Part shown: piece after piece, positions 3,518 to 22,921 of the stretch
Layout of the letters: each line of letters opens with the position of its first letter
Position numbering within the stretch: the first letter of the stretch is position 1
IMG/VR virus record: IMGVR_UViG_3300025018_000474
Span: 1 to 26,962 of that record
Source: a virus
Taxonomy: Duplodnaviria > Caudoviricetes
DNA length: 26,962 nucleotides
Direction: 5' to 3' (one strand)
Made by a program: the position numbers and the translations under genes
The notes under the pieces: model-generated
The model's database searches: none
What the model was told of the DNA's origin: nothing
The model's input: only the letters and a program-made list of their open reading frames with translations

Positions 3518-5881
3518 TTATTGATTATTATTGCTTTTCTTTTGTGTAATAGTAGCACTAGCTACTTTATTATCTATTATTAATCTCTTATCATCTTGTG
3601 CTAACTTCTTATTATCTACTTTGATATTATGTTGAAGTTCTCTATCTTTTCTATCCTGCTCTCTTTCTTGTACTGGGTCAACATCAATAGTAGTATCAGT
3701 ATCATTATTTCCTACTATATTAGCTTTTATTTCAGCAGAATCTATAGCAGTTCTATATTTCATATCTGCTTCATATGTTTTAATATCTCTATCCGCTTGC
3801 TCACTTTCTCTTTTAGCCTCTTCCATTCTTTCTAAGCTAGCTGTCTTTTCTTTCTCCATACTATTAGCTAACTCTCTTTCTCTATCTTCTAATTTTCTAA
3901 TAACTTCTTTTCCTTTAGTAAAATTGGTTAAATCAAGAGCTTCCATAAATACTGTAGAACTGCCAGCATTTTGAGCATAACTAAACATATAAGATTTCAT
4001 TTCTTCTAGCTTCTGATTTTCTTTTCCACTATTCTTAACAAATACATTATATGAAGTATTAACATGATGGATAACATCATCAGCATTCATATTTAAAAAA
4101 GCCTCTCTTTCCTCACTATTAATATACTTAGCTTTCTTACCATCTAAAAATGCTATCTTACTTAAATCTAATAATCCACTATAATCTTTTTCTTCAAACT
4201 TTTCAAATTTTCTATTAAGTTCTTCACTTATAATAGCACTTCTAAAAATAGCTTGTTCTGTTACACCTTTACCATCACTAGATTTGGTATCCCCAAATCT
4301 TTGTCTATTCATACCAATAGCTTCCCACCAATCATCTTTAAGCCCCATTAGTAATTCTCTACTCTGATTAATAAAAGTTCCAAGAGACATATCTAATACC
4401 TTTAAAGCTTGCATAGAAGCCAATGCAGTAGGAGAAGCTTCATCAACAAACATAAAGCCAGTAGCTCTACTATGATACATAAACTTTTCTTCATCCCACC
4501 CTTCTTTATCTTTTGGTATCATACCTATAGGTATAATAGCTATTTTATCCATATTCCTATTTATCATTCTTTCAGTTTGATAATGTACTATATTATATAA
4601 TATCTGATATGGATAACCTGTTTTAGCTAAAGAAAGTATTTCACCGTCTTTATTACACATATACCTACCATTATAAGGAAGCTTTTGTTCTGATTCATTA
4701 TTTAAATCAGCTCTATTATATGGTAAGGGTCTAACATCTATGTAAATTTCACCTATTGTAGAATCTTTTACTTTCCACCCTTCCCAAATTTCTGTAATCC
4801 ATTCCCAATCTATTTTAATATCACCATTAGATTTATCTAACTTGTAGGTATCATCTATATCAATTTCTTCTATTTCTCCTAATTCGTTTTGAGTATATAA
4901 TATACCTACTTTTTGAAAACTTCTCCATACTGCATGATATAGAGTAATTCCAGAAATTTCATTATTTAAACTATATTTTCTTTTATCTGATTCATTTCCT
5001 ATATAGGCAGTAGGCAACCAAGTATAACCATTACCTTCTAATTGGTAATCTTTATCATTATTTAATGTATCTAATGCTTTTACTTCTTTTTCACTTAACC
5101 TATCATGGAATTTATCTAATATATAATTAGGAGTAACTGACTGCCTTCTTACAAACCAATCCCCATCTTCTATAAAAGGAGATTGATAATTCTTAGGAAA
5201 ATACCCTTCTAATGGATCTACTGGTTCTAAGTTAACGTCATTATGATTAACATCTTTATAACTAATAGCTCTACCCACTATAAGCCAATCATAATACATC
5301 TTAACATATTTCTCATCTACATCTTCTGCGTACTTGATATAGTCTAAGATTTCATTACCAGTAATAATATGGTTTTCTGTATAAGTCCTATCAAACTCTT
5401 GTGCAACTTCTTCTTCTGATGGTTGTTCTACTGTTGGTTGACCTGTTTCTATACCTGCTGCATTTAAACCATTAATAGCTTTTTGTGCATAGTAGTTCTT
5501 CATAACCTTACCTAACTCCTTTTCATACTTAGATTGAGCTTCTGGATTAGTACCTACTGCTTGATAGTTCTTTAATCTCTTTCCATATTCCCCTACAAAT
5601 AATTCTATAATAGGGGTAATAATATTAAAGTTTCTTAACTTAGCACTAAACCTAGTATATTTATCTATTTTAGTATTAAAAGGATTTAAAACATAGTTAT
5701 AATCTTCTCTATCTAATTCAGAACTCATTACTCTATATAAGCGCATCATTTCCTCATGGTCACTATTCATAGAAGTTTGTTCCACTAGATAATCTATATT
5801 AACTTCACCCCAAGTTTTATCAGTACCAACTCTTTTGGTCTTGTCTATAGAACTTAATTTCTGTTTAGGATATATTGACAT
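3518..5881 (-). CDS. Portal protein
   Basis: 787 aa; NIITPIIELFVGE, WEWITEIWEG, KLPYNGR, PYQILYNIV, GMNRQRFG motifs as in crAss-like portals; coiled-coil C-terminus; downstream of terminase. Confidence 0.88.
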   Translation of the reverse strand: MSIYPKQKLSSIDKTKRVGTDKTWGEVNIDYLVEQTSMNSDHEEMMRLYRVMSSELDREDYNYVLNPFNTKIDKYTRFSAKLRNFNIITPIIELFVGEYGKRLKNYQAVGTNPEAQSKYEKELGKVMKNYYAQKAINGLNAAGIETGQPTVEQPSEEEVAQEFDRTYTENHIITGNEILDYIKYAEDVDEKYVKMYYDWLIVGRAISYKDVNHNDVNLEPVDPLEGYFPKNYQSPFIEDGDWFVRRQSVTPNYILDKFHDRLSEKEVKALDTLNNDKDYQLEGNGYTWLPTAYIGNESDKRKYSLNNEISGITLYHAVWRSFQKVGILYTQNELGEIEEIDIDDTYKLDKSNGDIKIDWEWITEIWEGWKVKDSTIGEIYIDVRPLPYNRADLNNESEQKLPYNGRYMCNKDGEILSLAKTGYPYQILYNIVHYQTERMINRNMDKIAIIPIGMIPKDKEGWDEEKFMYHSRATGFMFVDEASPTALASMQALKVLDMSLGTFINQSRELLMGLKDDWWEAIGMNRQRFGDTKSSDGKGVTEQAIFRSAIISEELNRKFEKFEEKDYSGLLDLSKIAFLDGKKAKYINSEEREAFLNMNADDVIHHVNTSYNVFVKNSGKENQKLEEMKSYMFSYAQNAGSSTVFMEALDLTNFTKGKEVIRKLEDRERELANSMEKEKTASLERMEEAKRESEQADRDIKTYEADMKYRTAIDSAEIKANIVGNNDTDTTIDVDPVQEREQDRKDRELQHNIKVDNKKLAQDDKRLIIDNKVASATITQKKSNNNQ

Positions 5882-13309: not shown

Positions 13310-13888
13310 ATGCGTACTTTAGCGATTGAAAAAGTGAGTGTTATCCGCCACAACAAAGTAGGCGAAGTAATTAATGTTGTAGCTATTCGTATTCCAGGTA
13401 AACCTGCAATACTTCGTAGCTTCGACCAGTTTGTAACAGATTTAAAGGATAGCTTTCTTATCAGTGATAGTGTCACCGATATGAACGACCCTGAAATCTT
13501 AGAGGTATTGGCTGATTTGCAAGGCGGTACTGTCACAGGTAATGTCACATTCCATAAAGAGGGTGACACCTACAAGATTGATGAAAACCATCCAGCTATT
13601 ACCAATCCGAACCACAGGTTATATGGTAAGGTATCAGTTGGGCAGGAGATGAAAACAGAGAAAGATGGTAGCCGTATTACAGAGGGTTTCTTAACTCTTA
13701 AGAGAGAAGTGACCAGTCAGGTAATTCATAAGAGTGCTAATTCTTATGCGAATAAGAGATTAGCTCTGGAAGGCTTCCTGAAATCAGTAGGTGTGGGTAC
13801 TCCACGTGGTCAGGCCCCAACTGATACTGATGATTTCGAAATTGAAGAGGTAGCATTACAGAAAGAAGCTGTAGGGGGAGTAAAGTAG
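13310..13888 (+). CDS. Hypothetical protein, first gene of the rightward arm
   Basis: 192-aa ORF, visibly higher GC and different codon usage, acidic C-terminal region, own terminator. Confidence 0.85.
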   Translation: MRTLAIEKVSVIRHNKVGEVINVVAIRIPGKPAILRSFDQFVTDLKDSFLISDSVTDMNDPEILEVLADLQGGTVTGNVTFHKEGDTYKIDENHPAITNPNHRLYGKVSVGQEMKTEKDGSRITEGFLTLKREVTSQVIHKSANSYANKRLALEGFLKSVGVGTPRGQAPTDTDDFEIEEVALQKEAVGGVK

Positions 13889-16323: not shown

Positions 16324-16593
16324 ATGGTAGAAGAATGGGCAGAAATAGAAGAATCTACTGGTTATAGTATAAGTAATAAAGGTAGGGTAAAGAAAGGAAA
16401 TATTATTTACCCTACCTATACCCTTACCAAGAATGGTATAGCCATTTATCTATCTATAGATAGTAAGGCTGTCTTATATTTAGTTGATGATTTAGTTGAA
16501 AAGTATTTTGGTGAAATAAATACTATAATACTTAAACCCTCATCAATTATAAGAAATCGTAAACCTAAAAAATGTTGTGGTAACAACAAATAA
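16324..16593 (+). CDS. NUMOD4-like protein without a recognisable HNH active site
   Basis: EEWAEIEESTGYSISNKGRVK matches the NUMOD4 pattern; YLVDDLVEKYF parallels VHRLVAxAF. Confidence 0.65.
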   Translation: MVEEWAEIEESTGYSISNKGRVKKGNIIYPTYTLTKNGIAIYLSIDSKAVLYLVDDLVEKYFGEINTIILKPSSIIRNRKPKKCCGNNK

Positions 16594-16606
16594 TAATAAT
16601 ATAGAT

Positions 16607-17191
16607 ATGATAACGAAACATCTCTTAGGTACTAAACTTAAAGTACAAGAAGATGGTAAAATATTTAGTAATGGTAAAGAATTAGCAATAAATACTACTG
16701 GTACTTATGATATGGTTAAAATATCTATCAAAGGTAGGTACAGAAATTTTAGAGTAGATTATGTAGTTGCTAATTCTTTTTTCCCTTTATTAGATGAAGA
16801 TGGGGAAGTAATACATCTTGATTATGATTTACATAATCATAGCTATACTAACTTACAATGGATTAGTTTTGAATCTGATATTGCAATAGATGCCTTAACT
16901 AATGATTGTTTAATATTATGTATAGATGTTTTTACATCTAACCTTATCTCTTTCTACAGGGGGGAACGTCATGTATGTATTAAAAATAATACAACATTAG
17001 AAGAGCTTACACCCCATCTAATACAACCTATAATACCTATTAATAATAAATTATTCTTTAGATTAATAGATATTAATGTAATAGATATAAATACAGCTTA
17101 TATGATATTTGAAGTATCAGATAAAATGTATGTAATACGTTATAATCAGGATATGATGTACAAATTAGTTAAATTACTCAAAAATGAATGA
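16607..17191 (+). CDS. Divergent HNH endonuclease-family protein
   Basis: VDYVVANSFFP...VIHLDYDLHNHSYTNLQW follows the phage HNH pattern; ATG at 16607 preferred to GTG at 16577. Confidence 0.7.
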   Translation: MITKHLLGTKLKVQEDGKIFSNGKELAINTTGTYDMVKISIKGRYRNFRVDYVVANSFFPLLDEDGEVIHLDYDLHNHSYTNLQWISFESDIAIDALTNDCLILCIDVFTSNLISFYRGERHVCIKNNTTLEELTPHLIQPIIPINNKLFFRLIDINVIDINTAYMIFEVSDKMYVIRYNQDMMYKLVKLLKNE

Positions 17192-17504
17192 AACTATATT
17201 TGATATAAAAGAAAAACTTCCTATCAATATAGTTATTATACCTTTTGACCATAATATAGAAAGGTTAACAGGTTATATTGATATAATAATTTCTGATACT
17301 AAATTATATCTTACCAATAATACAAATTTTACTATTAATGATATAGTTGATATACCTATTAATGTAAAAAGTATATCTGTAAAATCTGAAGATAGTCATT
17401 TTTTACTTAATAATTTTATGAATACAATAATATTTACAACTAGTAGTTATTTTATTACTACTTATATAAATGGGTTTAAGGTCAAAAGGCAATCCAATAA
17501 TTAA
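17184..17504 (+). CDS. Hypothetical protein
   Basis: 106-aa ORF overlapping the upstream gene end. Confidence 0.7.
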   Translation: MNETIFDIKEKLPINIVIIPFDHNIERLTGYIDIIISDTKLYLTNNTNFTINDIVDIPINVKSISVKSEDSHFLLNNFMNTIIFTTSSYFITTYINGFKVKRQSNN

Positions 17505-17524
17505 AACTAAATACAAAATGCTAA

Positions 17525-17788
17525 ATGAATAACGCAAAAAACTCCCAATTAACTATAATACGTGTTATACGCATACCCATTTTATCCTATTATGGTGGTG
17601 GTTATCGTTTAGAATACGACGGTAAATACATAACGCTTATCGGAAAAGATAAAAACTACAAGTGTATGTTTGGTGAGGATTATGAAGAAATGGTCTTGAT
17701 TCCAGTTGTGGAAGAAATTAGAAATGCTGAACCTGAAATTATAGAAACGACAAATAAGGAGATTGTGGTTTCTTTAGGTTATGCATAA
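17525..17788 (+). CDS. Hypothetical protein (cassette-like gene)
   Basis: 87-aa ORF; stop codon lies in GCATAAC. Confidence 0.75.
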   Translation: MNNAKNSQLTIIRVIRIPILSYYGGGYRLEYDGKYITLIGKDKNYKCMFGEDYEEMVLIPVVEEIRNAEPEIIETTNKEIVVSLGYA

Positions 17789-17908
17789 CGTTGGTGGTAT
17801 GGTTAGTTGGGGATTGTGAGGTACTGATATATCAAATTACAAAGGATTACAAGCAGAATAAACGGATTGTCTTTATAATTGGCACTAATGGTTCGTATAT
17901 AAGTAGTT

Positions 17909-17993
17909 GGGGAGATAGTAATAATGGTAAAACATAATACAAGTCTTTGGAGAAAACGGTATTAAGATTTGAGTTCGGTCCTCAATCTCTCCA
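17909..17993 (+). tRNA. Degenerate tRNA-like element with expanded anticodon loop (possible pseudo-tRNA-Gln UUG)
   Basis: Acceptor GGGGAGA/TCTCTCC+A, D-loop TAATGGTA, stem TAATAC/GTATTA around an 18-nt loop containing CTTTGGA, T-arm TTGAG-TTCGGTC-CTCAA. Confidence 0.55.
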
Positions 17994-18039
17994 CAATTAT
18001 TTATATACAGTTGGGATATAATTTTTTAAATTAAAATAT

Positions 18040-18213
18040 ATGGAAGATTTACTAAGAGAAGTATTTAAACTTGGGCAACAATGGGTTCAAGATATGAACA
18101 ATGGCAAAGAGTCAATAAACTTTAATACATGGTACAGTTCTGATGAAACGTAGGAGCATCTTGAATTATTGGAAAAGGTCTTTAAAAACCACTTCCAGAA
18201 AAACAAAGATTAA
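18040..18213 (+). pseudogene. Small ORF interrupted by an in-frame TAG
   Basis: MEDLLREVFKLGQQWVQDMNNGKESINFNTWYSSDET*(18151-18153)EHLELLEKVFKNHFQKNKD*; good A-rich start context. Confidence 0.5.
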
Positions 18214-18235
18214 AATAAATACAAAACTTAAATAT

Positions 18236-18520
18236 ATGAAGGATAATAATTTAGAAAATGAAAGTAAGCAATTAGGTACATACCATGTTACCCGAAATAA
18301 TTTATATAAAGGTATGCGTGTGCAAGATAGTGAAGGTAAAAAAGGTGTTGTTAGGAATTGTGAAGATTTGCATAATGTTCATATAACATTTGAAGGCAAA
18401 GGAATTGAGATAGATTGGTATGAAACACTTTTTGAGTGTGGGGATAGTGGGTTGTATTGCTTCATTGAAAATTGTGAAGATAATTGTGAGGATGAATACC
18501 CATTGTATTATTGCATATAA
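18236..18520 (+). CDS. Hypothetical protein (cassette-like gene, Cys/acidic C-terminus)
   Basis: ATG at 18236 in typical A-rich context, preferred to 18143; leader MKDNNLENESKQLGTYHV. Confidence 0.75.
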   Translation: MKDNNLENESKQLGTYHVTRNNLYKGMRVQDSEGKKGVVRNCEDLHNVHITFEGKGIEIDWYETLFECGDSGLYCFIENCEDNCEDEYPLYYCI

Positions 18521-18578
18521 TGGTTACGTATATGACCCGTTTGAGATAAATAGTACAAACTTTCAAAACAATATATAG

Positions 18579-18848
18579 ATGAGAAAAGAAATAAAACAAC
18601 AAAACAGCATCGACACCCAAATGGGTTATGATATAGTATCACTTGCTGTTTTTCCTTGCAAAAAGATAAAGGCAGGTAAATATAAATATCGTGGTTGGAT
18701 TATTTCGTGTGTTGGCTATTATGAGCCTGAACGAAGAGTATGCTGGGAAGGATATGACCCTGAAACTGGCTGTGGGGATTTTCATGGGTTTTCAAAGCGA
18801 GAAATAAAATGGTTAATAGACGAAAGCCTGTTTAAAAATAGCAGGTAA
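18579..18848 (+). CDS. Hypothetical protein (cassette-like gene)
   Basis: 89-aa ORF; stop in GCAGGTAAC; body bounded by a 16-bp imperfect inverted repeat. Confidence 0.8.
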   Translation: MRKEIKQQNSIDTQMGYDIVSLAVFPCKKIKAGKYKYRGWIISCVGYYEPERRVCWEGYDPETGCGDFHGFSKREIKWLIDESLFKNSR

Positions 18849-18902
18849 CGGTCATAAATATATCTAGTTTAGGATAAATAGTATAAACTTTAAACAAATA
18901 AA

Positions 18903-19148
18903 ATGAGTAAAAAAGAAACTTTAAATGAAACACGGAAACCCAAATTGCGCCTAACTGGTATTAGGCATAGTCTTTCTAACTATGCTATTTTTGAAATACA
19001 AGACAAAGGCATAATTAGAATGGCACTTACAGGGGATAAAGATAAAGAACATTCCTTTTTAATGCGAGATGAAGCGATTGAATGGCTTGTTAATTATGCC
19101 GATGATTTTAAGCGGTATTTTATAGTAGAACAAATAATAGTCTATTAA
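18903..19148 (+). CDS. Hypothetical protein (cassette-like gene)
   Basis: 81-aa ORF with leader MSKKETLNETRKPKLRLTGIRHS. Confidence 0.75.
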   Translation: MSKKETLNETRKPKLRLTGIRHSLSNYAIFEIQDKGIIRMALTGDKDKEHSFLMRDEAIEWLVNYADDFKRYFIVEQIIVY

Positions 19149-19209
19149 ATTACGCTTAACGTGGGTTATGTAGTTGGGTTTTATTTATCAATTTAAAACA
19201 AAAGTAGAT

Positions 19210-19440
19210 ATGAAACATAAATTTTCAATAACCGACAAATTAAGGCATTTTTTATATTGCTTATTATGTTGTGTTAAATTTATAGTAGGATGGATAATGT
19301 GGATAATAATATTTCTGTTATCATTAATATTTTCATTGTTAACGTGGAATTTTAAAGAAACATCTACTATAAATATGAAAGTTGTAATGATAGAAATATG
19401 TGGAAAATCAACATGGAAATGTATGGGACTTGGTGATTAA
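19210..19440 (+). CDS. Small membrane protein (cassette-like gene)
   Basis: ATG at 19210; long hydrophobic segment FIVGWIMWIIIFLLSLIFSLLTW. Confidence 0.7.
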   Translation: MKHKFSITDKLRHFLYCLLCCVKFIVGWIMWIIIFLLSLIFSLLTWNFKETSTINMKVVMIEICGKSTWKCMGLGD

Positions 19441-19495
19441 TACCCTTATAACGGATGAATATATATTTCGGTTATGATTTACAAAGAACTAGTAA

Positions 19496-20008
19496 ATGAA
19501 ACCAATAAAAAACAGAAGGCAGATATTAAAACAATATCCTATTGATATTAGTCCATTTGCCTCTCGGACTAAGATAAAAGCTAAATTTAATCTTCAAGAG
19601 ATACAAAATAGTGATTCAGATGTGGTATTAGCTAGAAAAAGAGCTTTTCAATCAGATGAATACATTAAATACATTTTATCTCCTGAAATGAATTTAGCTG
19701 CTTATTATAGATTATCTAATTTAGCTAAGACTATGTTACAATATATAGTTCATAATTGTTTAGAATATAATACACCTATTTTTAGATTAGATATTAATGA
19801 TTTTATGATACTCATTAAGTTTAAGACTAAGAATAAAGTGTATGATTGTGTAAATGAACTTATAACTACAGATTATATAGCTAGGACTACTACCAAAGAA
19901 ATATATTGGATAAACCACAATATATTTTATAAAGGTAATTATTTAATTACTAAAGAATTAAAAATACGCAAGACTGAAGAATATTTAAAAAAATTAGGAA
20001 TAAAATAA
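19496..20008 (+). CDS. RepL-like winged-helix replication initiator / DNA-binding protein
   Basis: LSNLAKTMLQYI...VYDCVNELITTDYIART...YWINHNIFYKGN resembles the RepL family C-terminal YxINPxxFxxG motif; RepL-like genes are known in crAss-like phages. Confidence 0.7.
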   Translation: MKPIKNRRQILKQYPIDISPFASRTKIKAKFNLQEIQNSDSDVVLARKRAFQSDEYIKYILSPEMNLAAYYRLSNLAKTMLQYIVHNCLEYNTPIFRLDINDFMILIKFKTKNKVYDCVNELITTDYIARTTTKEIYWINHNIFYKGNYLITKELKIRKTEEYLKKLGIK

Positions 20009-20014
20009 CCTATT

Positions 20015-20293
20015 ATGAATTATCAATATTTAAATAATATAACAGAACTTCCTAGAAGTGAAGGTGGAAATATATTATCTGTTAAAATATCTAAAAAAGA
20101 TATAGATAATGTAACAATTATTTGTGATTACAATACTAAAGGAGACAGTACTAAAGTTACTATAAAAGTTAGAAAAAATAGTAATATATTAGAACAAAGG
20201 ACTTTTTTAAATTCTAATATATTTCCAAAGCATATAATGAGAACTAAAACAGATATTATAATTTATTTAGAATCATTCAAAAATGAAGATTAA
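20015..20293 (+). CDS. Hypothetical protein
   Basis: 92-aa ORF in a tightly packed operon. Confidence 0.7.
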   Translation: MNYQYLNNITELPRSEGGNILSVKISKKDIDNVTIICDYNTKGDSTKVTIKVRKNSNILEQRTFLNSNIFPKHIMRTKTDIIIYLESFKNED

Positions 20294-20651
20294 GACATTT
20301 AATAAAAAGATATTTAAAGAAAAAATAGAATCTATTGGTACTAATAAAGTTAAAGAATTTAAGACTAAAATAAAGAGTGTAGAACAACATATACCTTTAG
20401 AGTTTTTTAAGTCTAATGGTTCTTTATCTATTGAGAATACTTTAAATATATTACCTACGCCTATAAAGAATATACTAGAGAATGGTAATAATCCAATTTC
20501 TATCAAATCCAACAGTTCTATTATTGAGATTAAAACTGATACTGGATTATCTATTACAGTAAAAACTAGTAGCATAGATGATAAAGTACCACAAGTTAAA
20601 ATCTTTGATAAAGACTCAAAGACTGAACTACTTAATACATACAAAAGATGA
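20283..20651 (+). CDS. Hypothetical protein
   Basis: 122-aa ORF, ATGA-coupled to the helicase gene. Confidence 0.7.
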   Translation: MKIKTFNKKIFKEKIESIGTNKVKEFKTKIKSVEQHIPLEFFKSNGSLSIENTLNILPTPIKNILENGNNPISIKSNSSIIEIKTDTGLSITVKTSSIDDKVPQVKIFDKDSKTELLNTYKR

Positions 20652-21889
20652 ATGAACTTAATGTAAATTTAACTGTTGACCAGAAAGATGCTTTAAATCA
20701 TATGGTTGATTGGGCTAAACAACCTAATAAAACTAATGATGATTTATTCTATGTTTTAACTGGGTTTGCTGGAACTGGTAAAACTTTTTTATTAAAATAC
20801 TTTGTACAAGTAAGTGGAATTAATAACTTAGTTGTTACTGCACCTACTCATAAAGCTAAGAAAGTTATATCTAATAATACTGATTTACCTGCTAAAACTA
20901 TACAATCTTTATTAGGTTTAAGACCTGATGTTAATATGGAATTCTTTGATATTAACAAACCTGTATTTAATCCACTTGCAGAAGAAACTATTAAAGATTA
21001 TAGATATGTAGTTATTGATGAAAGTAGTATGCTTAATAAAGATTCTTTTGAATTAATAACTAAGAGAGCTATATACTTTAAAATAAATATAATATTTTTA
21101 GGGGATAGTTATCAATTACCACCAATAGGTGAGCCTATTAGTAGAGTATTTATAGATATTAAAAACAAATCTGAACTTACTACTATTGTTAGGCAAGAAG
21201 AAACTAATCCTAATATTAATTTACTTAATCTGATTAGAAATGATATTAGATTTAATAAAACTACTGCTTTAGCTTATATATATAAGAATCCTAGTAATAT
21301 TAATAAAATAGGAGAAGGATATTTAGCTTTAACATCTAAGGATTTTGTTCAAGCATTAATATCTCAATTTTGTAAAACAGAATCTATGTATAGTTCTGAC
21401 TATATTAAATATATAGCATATACTAATAAATCTGTAGCTACCGCTTGTAAAGGTATCAGAAATAAAAGGATTGGCAAAGAATCTTCTGAATTAATTGTTA
21501 AAGCTGATTTTTTAATAGGATATAATACTATATTAAAAGATGCTAAAGATGGTTTATATACTGTTATAGAGAATAGTGAAGATTATACTATAGATAGTAT
21601 TGAAGATTGTGTTAGTGATTTTAATATTAAGTGTTATGGTGTTAAATTATCAGATTCAAATAATTCTTCATCTTTTATATATATAGTTAAGAAAGAATCT
21701 TACGAAGATTTCTTAGATATATTTAGAAGTAAGTTATTAGTAGCTAAAGAGAAAAGAGGTAGATATTGGGAATATTATTATAAGTTTAAAAACGAACATT
21801 TACTCATGGAAGATTTCTATTTTTCTAGTGGTAAATTGGAAGTAAAGAAAGACTTATACTATGGTTATGGTTTAACGATACATAAGAGT
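20648..21889 (+). CDS. dda: Dda/RecD-like SF1B DNA helicase, exon 1
   Basis: Walker A GFAGTGKT, APTHKA, TIQSLL, Walker B IDESSM, GDSYQLPPI, IVRQ; ends in motif V (GLTIHKS). Confidence 0.9.
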
Positions 21890-22921
21890 TAACAAAAACC
21901 TATGGCTCTTATAAAACCTATTTAATTGCTGGAACTTCCTAAAGATGTTAATACTACAACATAACTAGAAATAGTAAGTGTGAATGTTTAAGAAATTAAC
22001 ATATATTACAATGGATAATCAGCAGCGAAGCCTTTAAGTAGAAATATAAAAGGAACGTTCAGAGACTATCGAAAACACGTGCAAACGGAAGTGAGTAGAG
22101 TACATTTATGTATAAAAACATATCTGGAAAAAGTAGGGTATTTCTGTTTACTATTCACAAATTGCTTAAATTCACAGTTCATAAAAAGCAATTTTAGAAT
22201 TTTAAACATTTGAAAATTATGGAAAATAAAGTTAAAAGGGAGTATCTATTGTTTAGTTAATCCTATTACAGAAGAGATTTTTTATGTAGGAGCAACTAAG
22301 ACTGATTTAATGGAAAGACTTAAAAAACATTATTGGGATTTAACTAGTTACCAAAACGGAAAACGTAAGTTTAATAAACGTTTTGAGTATTTAGAAAAGT
22401 TATTACCAAATACTGTTAGTTTAGGTCTTATTGAAGAAGTTAACTTAGAAGAATTAGATGAGAGAGAAAAATATTGGATTAATTATTATAAAAATTTAAA
22501 TCCTAATCTTACAAATACTACAATAGGTGGTAGAGGTGGAGATACATATGGATTACAATCTGATATAAGACAAAAAGAAATTTCTCTTAGAATAAGTAAT
22601 GCAAATAAAGGTAGGTCTAAACCTATAGGATTTGCTGAAAATTTATCTAAAGCCAGAAAAGGTATTAATAATCCTGCTGCTAAAGAAATTAGTATAGGAT
22701 GGATAGTATGTAGTAGAAAATACTTATTTAAATATGGTTTTGAAATTAATTCTTTTATGAAAAATGATTATGCTTTTGGAAACATATATAAGGCTCTTAA
22801 AAAGAATAATAGAGCTATGTGTAATTTTAAAAACTTTGAATTATTTAGTAATTTATCAAAAGAAATACAAGATATAGTCCAACAAGATTATGAAAGTAAT
22901 CAAATGAAAATTTAAGTACAG
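21890..22921 (+). mobile_element. Group I self-splicing intron in the helicase gene
   Basis: Exon end ATAAGAGT pairs with IGS GCTCTTAT (21905-21912, U.G at the splice site); core elements AATTGCTGGAA, AATCAGCAG, GTTCAGAGACTA, AAGATATAGTCC; P9 GATTAT-GAAA-GTAATC; terminal G at 22921; removal restores HKS/QGST. Confidence 0.93.
22219..22915 (+). CDS. Intron-encoded GIY-YIG homing endonuclease (frameshift near the 5' end)
   Basis: GSIYCL...FYVGAT...RLKKH, EREKYWI, NTTIGG and NUMOD3-like repeats; the ATG at 22219 is one base out of frame with the motif-bearing frame. Confidence 0.8.

Follow-up and report, generated by a model that had tools for sequence, protein, structure and literature searches.

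Hairpin-headed small-gene units in phages and their decayed relatives in a likely crAss-like phage fragment

We examined a block of small genes at positions 17525-19475 of the virus record IMGVR_UViG_3300025018_000474, the whole 26,962 bases of which were analyzed (hereafter, the window) and which is estimated to be 32% complete. The block holds seven small reading frames, all in the same orientation. It had been described from its letters, in what we call the sequence-only reading, as an integron-like array of gene cassettes with attC-like folding sites. Homology indicates that the spacers in this block are relatives of a family of AAC...GTT hairpins, captured by our model R1, that stand between small genes in other phages. 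On balance we lean toward a reading in which the window carries decayed small-gene units, headed by relatives of these hairpins and exchanged between phages by a predicted Xer-like recombinase. The integron-like reading is partly supported by these comparisons, with recombination itself being a prediction: attC-like anatomy, breakpoints, and a recombinase speak for it at the level of the family, whereas gene-end complementarity, hairpin placement, and enzyme type do not.

In the 462-kb uncultured phage LR756500.1, small open reading frames (ORFs) are parted by well-kept hairpins that start ...TAACG and end ...TGTTAT. A 16-mer from the hairpin 3′ arm drew 128 viral loci, a one-arm pattern that biases the seed set, and R1 was built from 33 hairpins, the structure being assigned manually from folds of individual hairpins; the first alignment had yielded no structure in RNAalifold because some rows were half-length. 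At E ≤0.01, R1 identified 121 sites, 109 of them distinct, spread over 28 of the 88 phage sources, often at five to 10 per 5 kb. Paired positions matched in 95.0% of 2624 cells, compared with 67.5% after shuffling and 38-54% with a slid partner column, and 695 cells had changed on both sides, compared with 221 in shuffles; the alignment was fitted to the model, which favors the structure, and the slid controls carry equal bias. The family exists, and its stem is maintained by compensatory changes.

The hairpins share a clear anatomy. A 5-bp foot, UAACG/UGUUA, is near-invariant, with a G.U pair in 100 of the 109 sequences; it is followed by a 3-nt bulge on the 5′ arm and then by a conserved UAU/AUA inside a 20-bp covarying stem. 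The RYYY/RRRY letters are often unmatched (e.g., AGGTAAC, GTTATAA). Tops span 2-85 nt; of the 109 sites, 18 have loops of ≤10 nt, 42 have loops of 20-40 nt, and 46 have loops of 60-80 nt. A ~35-nt unit, present zero, one, or two times, builds the loops, and its motif, AACTTTCAAATTA, is what the sequence-only reading had called the core. Site lengths fall into classes of ~62, ~100, and ~138 nt (L004, L006, L009, L012, and others). On the gene-sense strand, G.T pairs far outnumber A.C pairs (339 vs 15, or 54 vs 12 without four G.U-rich columns), so the fold is selected on that strand.

A scan of bacterial genomes with the 16-mer gave mostly chance matches; real sites were present in five of 100 loci, on contigs filed under unrelated taxa, and so no host can be inferred from it. 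Dense arrays were also seen on small contigs (L157, L173, L214, and L153) in metagenome-assembled genomes of Methanolobus, Saccharofermentanales, and Christensenellaceae; these are probably mis-binned phage contigs. A BLAST search with the canonical array against named phages gave only the self-match, and Rfam returned nothing meaningful for either the window or that array.

Because the R1 scores of the window sites are at noise level, their membership of the family rests on homology, which is carried by two sites, all window sites being on the + strand. W1 (17783-17860) is the 5′ half of a family hairpin, comprising foot, 5′ arm, and loop, with the 3′ arm missing. It matches LR756500.1 at 81.7% over 71 nt (E 1e-8 against 2.3 billion bases) and is homologous, at that E value, to a site that passes R1 (L003 2992-3133), with a local alignment score of 94 compared with a shuffle mean of 19.7; no fold beyond shuffles was found for W1. 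W3 (18841-18963) is a decayed copy of a full element, including foot, 5′ arm, and core loop as well as the ATG and N-terminal codons, and is ~80% identical to the whole L086 element (score 147, shuffle mean 29.6, maximum 45). The 3′ arm of W3 is mutated, leaving no stem (fold z-score +1.64).

The remaining sites range from full-length to minimal. W1b (17878-18024), which contains an inverted repeat, is a full-length hairpin with a TAATG foot, an 18/21 stem, and a loop of ~70 nt, and it scores 24.1 bits with R1 (E 0.062), noise lying near 22 bits. In the hairpin W2 (18510-18644; 23.1 bits, E 0.096), the loop contains the shared core together with the ATG at 18579 and 13 initial codons, and translation runs through the 3′ arm. 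W0 (17528-17572), read from the sequence, is a mini site within the first codons of an ORF, with TAACG at 17531-17535 and TGTTA at 17563-17567; contigs of three other sequencing runs share 17525-17567, with 5-6 other letters in 43, and diverge on both sides. W4 and W5 are minimal remnants. W4 (19154-19180), also read from the sequence, consists of GCTTAACG TGG GTTATG followed by GTAGTTGGGT, scores 15.1 bits at 19086-19174, below noise, and has no fold beyond shuffles. W5 (19441-19480) is a mini hairpin, CTTATAAC...GGTTATGA, just 5′ of the ORF at 19496-20008, and at 12.9 bits it too is below noise.

Counts of words and folds bear on the sequence-only reading directly. Of the 10 + strand copies of the pattern GC[N1-4]TAA[CT]G in the window, six lie within 17783-19154, and the TAA of the pattern is the in-frame stop of three of six small ORFs (17788, 18520, and 18848) and lies 9-12 nt past the stop in two further ones. 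The core GATAAATAGTAYAAACTTT is present twice (18545 and 18873) where 0.30 copies are expected, and none of 100 shuffles reaches two; GTAGTTGGGG, allowing at most one mismatch, is present five times against 0.63 expected, with three copies in the region. TAAYG followed by GTTAT within 150 nt occurs nine times in 17500-19500, compared with 2.1 in shuffles, and no shuffle of 300 reaches nine. Small genes ending at clustered TAA(C/T)G words and spacers sharing a core, as had been proposed, are therefore borne out. The inverted repeats said to bound gene bodies are not: the named ends match at 8/13, 12/16, and 8/12 positions, and the best end-to-end complementarity of the six ORFs is 10-11 of 14, which is chance level beside shuffle means of 9.8-10.4 and values of 10-13 in 10 control genes. 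The complementarity of cassette ends expected from attC, for which comparison with shuffled controls had been suggested, thus shows no excess; complementarity is found inside each spacer instead. Folding of the spacers was confirmed in part. Positions 17895-17915 and 17988-18008 pair at 18 of 21, the fold of 17884-18024 has a z-score of −2.18 (4/200 shuffles as good), that of 18516-18644 has −1.54 on the + strand only, with +1.31 on the opposite strand (16/200), and that of 19445-19480 has −2.03 (10/200); both long-range stems that had been named stand, with modest z-scores, and half of the six spacers fold no better than shuffles. That half, together with the R1 scores, agrees with the earlier remark that several sites look eroded.

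These results also bear on whether the pattern is merely what AT-rich DNA with TAA stops yields by chance, with no element present. The noise-level R1 scores, the chance-level complementarity of gene ends, and the three foldless spacers are what such a view would predict, whereas the match of W1 to a bona fide element, the W3 score far beyond the shuffle maximum, and word and core counts above all shuffles are not. We regard chance as very improbable and, on the homology of W1 and W3, as already contradicted.

The position of the hairpins relative to genes is consistent across the family, whose members separate small ORFs of one orientation. In 14 of 109 sites the core TAA serves as the upstream stop, and in 66 the stop lies ≤30 nt before the core; the next ATG is a median of 17 nt past the site. 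The ATG falls inside the site in 20 of 95 cases, W2 and W3 being of that kind; where an ORF starts inside the hairpin (as in L086 182-320, 18510-18644, and 18841-18963), the N-terminus of the protein is read through the 3′ arm. Among 179 site-to-site BLAST matches, similarity begins sharply at TAACG: it extends >20 nt upstream in two, one of which is an overlap of two loci, and >20 nt downstream in 33, with >50 nt downstream in 10. This asymmetry implies that each hairpin is inherited with the gene 3′ of it. Copies that are 80-97% identical stand between unrelated genes in different phages. In the window, the 89-aa ORF at 18579-18848 (+ strand, GC content 0.37), whose stop is the TAA of GCAGGTAACG, is 62% identical to L002 4001-4279, on an unrelated, GC-richer phage contig where it is flanked by R1 matches at 3939-4079 and 4269-4416, and is 50% identical to Dulem virus 41.

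Such copies, together with terminal inverted repeats and three discrete loop sizes, would also be expected if the elements were non-autonomous mobile repeats, resembling miniature inverted-repeat transposable elements or Correia elements, that settle in intergenic gaps between genes that are not themselves mobile units. Against such repeats stand the uniform orientation and place, right after a stop and on the gene strand, the linkage to downstream genes, and the whole gene-plus-hairpin units by which the cultured Polaribacter phages P12002L and P12002S differ. Empty sites were not encountered, and the scarcity of real sites in the bacterial 16-mer scan (five of 100 loci) counts against them too. 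We consider this explanation improbable. An IS200/IS605-type idea was rejected, a search of two jumbo records having turned up no Y1 transposase.

Gene-content breakpoints could be followed in P12002L and P12002S, which are relatives and not of the window's own lineage. In a 12.5-kb stretch, 66% of the sequence is shared between the two at 99% identity, and R1 finds four sites in P12002L at E ≤0.0013. Five of six breakpoints between the two phages lie at the AAC(G)/ core (the slash marking the junction), within 1-6 nt, and only 3-6 letters of core are shared at these five, the hairpins otherwise differing. An insertion of 850 bp, a methyltransferase unit, sits immediately behind ...GGTAACG and closes with ...GCTAACG, between two unlike hairpins; the hairpin that comes after ...GCTAACG/ is a different one in each phage. 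A replaced block, 1.9 kb in one and 2.4 kb in the other, is bounded by CAACG/ and AAC/AACGG. Another pair, L006 and L032, proved uninformative because its moved 821-bp block breaks inside genes.

A recombinase gene accompanies some of the arrays. A Pfam search of 77 ORFs found a protein of ~267 aa with PF00589 and SAM_4 in three of 22 array loci, and a recombinase of 265-276 aa is encoded by exactly one gene in eight of 23 array-bearing records. Sites lie upstream on the recombinase strand in all eight loci, which come from related phages and are not independent; within ~1.4 kb downstream of the recombinase there are none in the seven loci that could be judged, and whole-genome maps of G003, G004, and G014 agree. 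The proteins are 42-48% identical to the most distant member, and the catalytic residues R-K-H-R-H-Y are intact. Their best NCBIfam model is the XerA/integron-integrase model NF040815 (184-194 bits, cut-off 220), followed by XerC/D and then IntI, with TIGR02249 reaching 136-159 bits against a cut-off of 265. The closest solved structure is XerA (4A8E, E 1e-37), then IntI4; in the alignment to IntI4 (2A3V), the chain jumps from residue 177 to 260 over 35 query residues. By these comparisons the array-associated enzyme is not an integron integrase. In metagenomes the recombinase forms at least 120 clusters at ≥74% identity, nearly all of 265 aa. A word, TAACTA-N3-TATATA, was also noted 40-60 nt 5′ of the recombinase ATG (L263-L270), with TAACTA invariant in seven of seven aligned sequences and standing where the hairpins have TAACGG; it may be a candidate partner (attI-like) site or an operator. 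The suggestion that a recombinase is encoded elsewhere fits these data; the window has none, and a Xer/IntI-clade enzyme is found in eight of 23 array-bearing records. The related proposal that breakpoints fall at the core held for five of the six in the Polaribacter phages and not for the sixth.

A rival that remains serious, though we think it rather unlikely, is that the hairpins are regulatory modules like the promoter-early stem-loops (PeSLs) of T4-type phages, ending or processing the upstream transcript and carrying signals for the downstream gene, with shuffling a by-product of general recombination that involves no dedicated enzyme. The hairpins fill nearly the whole gap from stop to ATG, are linked to the downstream gene, and have G.U pairs on the mRNA-sense strand, all of which suit such modules. 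About half of the sites carry in the 3′ arm a word TAnnTTTG (consensus TATATTTGT, 41-65% per column), which is a candidate Bacteroidota −7 box. This candidate signal is not conserved as a promoter: its columns covary with the 5′ arm, in the remaining sites covarying letters take the place of the word, and it is in none of the window sites. Nor is there a T-run after the stem, where the consensus past the foot is TAAGTA. One Polaribacter breakpoint in the conserved arm, off the core, and four array-bearing genomes without any tyrosine recombinase also favor PeSL-like modules, and PeSLs are themselves described as shuffling genes in hyperplastic regions and giving mini-circles (PMC2839356, PMC4122927). 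Against such modules stand the five breakpoints that use a core of 3-6 letters between otherwise different hairpins, the invariant foot, whose fixed G.U and fixed bulge suggest a sequence-reading protein, and the recombinase gene at the end of the arrays in eight of eight loci.

In the exchange that we favor, the sense strand would fold as single-stranded DNA and be cut after TAA in TAA/CG, mirroring the AA/C cut that integron attC sites receive on their bottom strand. The enzyme predicted for this reaction is a small tyrosine recombinase of the Xer-like kind, which the fragment lacks. With a cut at TAA/CG, a unit would run from CG through hairpin, leader, and ORF to the next ...TAA. The family shows the attC-type geometry on the sense strand, and this explains why similarity has a sharp 5′ edge, why linkage runs downstream, why the stem covaries while the foot is invariant, and why breakpoints fall at the level of the core; the geometry does not prove recombination. 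The window units would have come from GC-richer phages and lost their stems afterwards. As to whether this amounts to a phage-borne second kind of integron, with a sense-strand hairpin for each gene, exchange at TAA/C, a Xer-like enzyme of 265 aa, and the window as a decayed capture, our judgment is evenly balanced; such units would move between unrelated crAss-like, jumbo, and siphovirus-type Polaribacter phages.

Several observations weigh against exchange by such an enzyme or against the place of the window in it. No window site reaches E ≤0.01 with R1, and its scores of 24.1 and 23.1 bits compare with a 22-bit chance match inside a minus-strand gene. Spacers 17784-17883, 18844-18962, and 19155-19209 lack a fold better than shuffles. 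Sense-strand G.T pairing fits an RNA hairpin equally well. One of the six breakpoints is off the core: at a 1081-bp indel spanning three small genes, the crossover falls 10-15 nt farther 3′, within the arm's conserved GTAT, and looks like recombination on short homology. The recombinase falls below the curated cut-offs of all NCBIfam models and lacks ~48 residues where IntI4 carries its extra domain. No tyrosine recombinase was found in P12002L or P12002S, nor in LR756500.1 (462 kb) or G009 (324 kb, 100% complete), which have arrays, and none (PF00589) was found in the window, a fragment ~32% complete. Finally, of the six sites assayed with IntI1 in section 3.4 of Qi et al. 2023 (PMC9892861), only P12002L_attC1, a family member discussed below, gave no verified product.

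The window is likely a fragment of a crAss-like phage, since its superfamily 1 (SF1) helicase gene (20648-21892) resembles those of crAss-type phages (71-73% over ~145 nt). Scans of viral contigs with a 170-aa ORF and with the helicase found no close relatives. GC content is 0.29-0.36 within the region, compared with 0.20-0.25 in the flanks on either side. None of the seven small frames at 17525-19475 has a Pfam or PHROG family. Besides the 89-aa ORF, those on the + strand include an 87-aa ORF (17525-17788; GC 0.33) that stops at the TAA of the core GCATAACG and has no tblastn match in 50,697 phage records, a 37-aa ORF (18040-18153), a 94-aa ORF (18236-18520) that stops at the TAA of GCATATAATG, an 81-aa ORF (18903-19148), and a hydrophobic 76-aa ORF of GC 0.24 read from the ATG at 19210 (19210-19440). 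Searches with tblastn gave no match for the 94-aa and 81-aa ORFs either. This block of GC-richer orphan genes at 17.5-19.5 kb was probably imported and its sites are largely dead, which is the smaller lesson that the window offers taken alone.

Contigs of five groundwater or aquifer sequencing runs contained the region in low-depth pieces, the window's own phage with 0 other letters, and none among those runs bridged a deleted unit. Two joints, one from 18599 to 20225 with a short side of only 21 letters and a "goes back" joint from 17815 to 17524 with 31 letters and unknown letters between, are too weak for use. As a weak pointer, short contigs of other DNA in three runs match from exactly 17785 (ATAACG...) and are unlike the window before it. 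The 36 nt at 18180-18215 recur in a 37-nt contig of depth 564 in run X8 and at "goes back" joints in runs X5-X7, and are probably a repeat common to abundant other DNA.

Elsewhere in the window, two overlapping ORFs of 89 and 204 aa (16324-17191, + strand) make up a split NUMOD4/HNH homing-endonuclease-like gene (NUMOD4 in Pfam, E 2.4e-5; PHROG 959, HNH endonuclease, E 2e-5 and 5.6e-12). It lies directly 5′ of the array and may be broken or frameshifted. A 201-aa ORF at 15662-16267 matches PHROG 18326 (function unknown) and has a long Ala/Asp/Tyr-rich low-complexity middle; the long antisense ORFs over it look like a composition artifact. The ORF at 13310-13888, with a GC content of 0.42 compared with ~0.25 genome-wide, stands where the minus-strand genes give way to a plus-strand block, and it too was probably imported. 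A search for tRNA genes in the window found none.

If the hairpins are recombination sites, phages would own a cassette-capture system that mirrors the bacterial integron and runs on a simpler enzyme. Such a system would account for the movement of orphan genes and DNA methyltransferases between unrelated phages, and the AAC-footed hairpin would provide a sequence handle for finding accessory and counter-defense genes in metagenomes.

Among the closest known systems is the integron. On the folded strand, its attC is cut AA/C at the 5′ foot and moves together with the DNA on its 3′ side. Like attC, the family hairpin would fold as a single strand, with a conserved AAC/GTT foot, a bulge nearby, and a covarying stem below a variable top; exchange would likewise fall at AA/C on the folded strand, with the site going with the DNA 3′ on that strand, and a tyrosine recombinase of the Xer/IntI clade adjoins the array. 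The family differs in that its genes are on the folded strand, so that the hairpin heads the gene, whereas an integron attC trails its ORF and folds antisense. Unlike IntI, the family recombinase has 265-276 aa and no IntI insert, and it is co-oriented at the downstream end of the array, where an integron integrase is divergent at the head. Exchange of attC at G/TT, on the other strand, is restated in section 3.4 of Qi et al. (PMC9892861).

The same paper reports clusters of attC sites lacking integron integrases (CALINs) in virulent phages and names P12002L as a carrier with two sites, to which R1 adds four. In the passages considered here, these phage CALINs are like the family in having rows of small genes, often DNA methyltransferases, with AAC...GTT hairpins and no integron integrase. 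P12002L_attC1, predicted as attC by HattCI (supplement Table S3 of that paper), corresponds to L271 30002-30064 on the gene strand and has the family foot and a loop, TCGTTTTAATG, as in the short class. The P12002L_attC2 sequence occurs twice in P12002L (L271 37265-37198 and 29239-29172) and once in P12002S (L272 6739-6806); on the gene strand it begins ...AAC/AACGG, bounds the replaced block, does not fit R1, and may be a second site type. Those passages of PMC9892861 make no mention of the long arrays of jumbo phages, an array-end Xer-like recombinase, linkage to the downstream gene, or the P12002L/P12002S breakpoints. Literature listings showed no paper that links phage hairpin arrays to a Xer-like recombinase.

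The PeSLs of T4-type phages, as portrayed in the parts of Arbiol 2010 (PMC2839356) and Comeau 2014 (PMC4122927) considered, lie between small non-essential genes in hyperplastic regions, combine a strong sigma-70-type promoter with an effective terminator, and take part in modular shuffling by homologous recombination, with mini-circles. The family is like them in placing short conserved stem-loops between small orphan genes and in related phages that differ by insertions, deletions, and swaps. It is unlike them in that no conserved promoter or T-run was found, breakpoints fall at a core of 3-6 nt, and a dedicated recombinase co-occurs.

A last comparison is with sites of the Xer enzymes themselves. 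Some phages use Xer on folded DNA, and pdif sites, which are double-stranded and 28 bp long, serve the XerC/D of the host. In the pdif modules of Acinetobacter, resistance genes are flanked by Xer recombination sites, as outlined in the portion of PMC7399989 considered. Both kinds of array thus hold genes bounded by sites of a Xer-type recombinase, the family enzyme being closest to XerA; in place of the pdif site the family has hairpins of 60-150 nt, and its enzyme is phage-borne.

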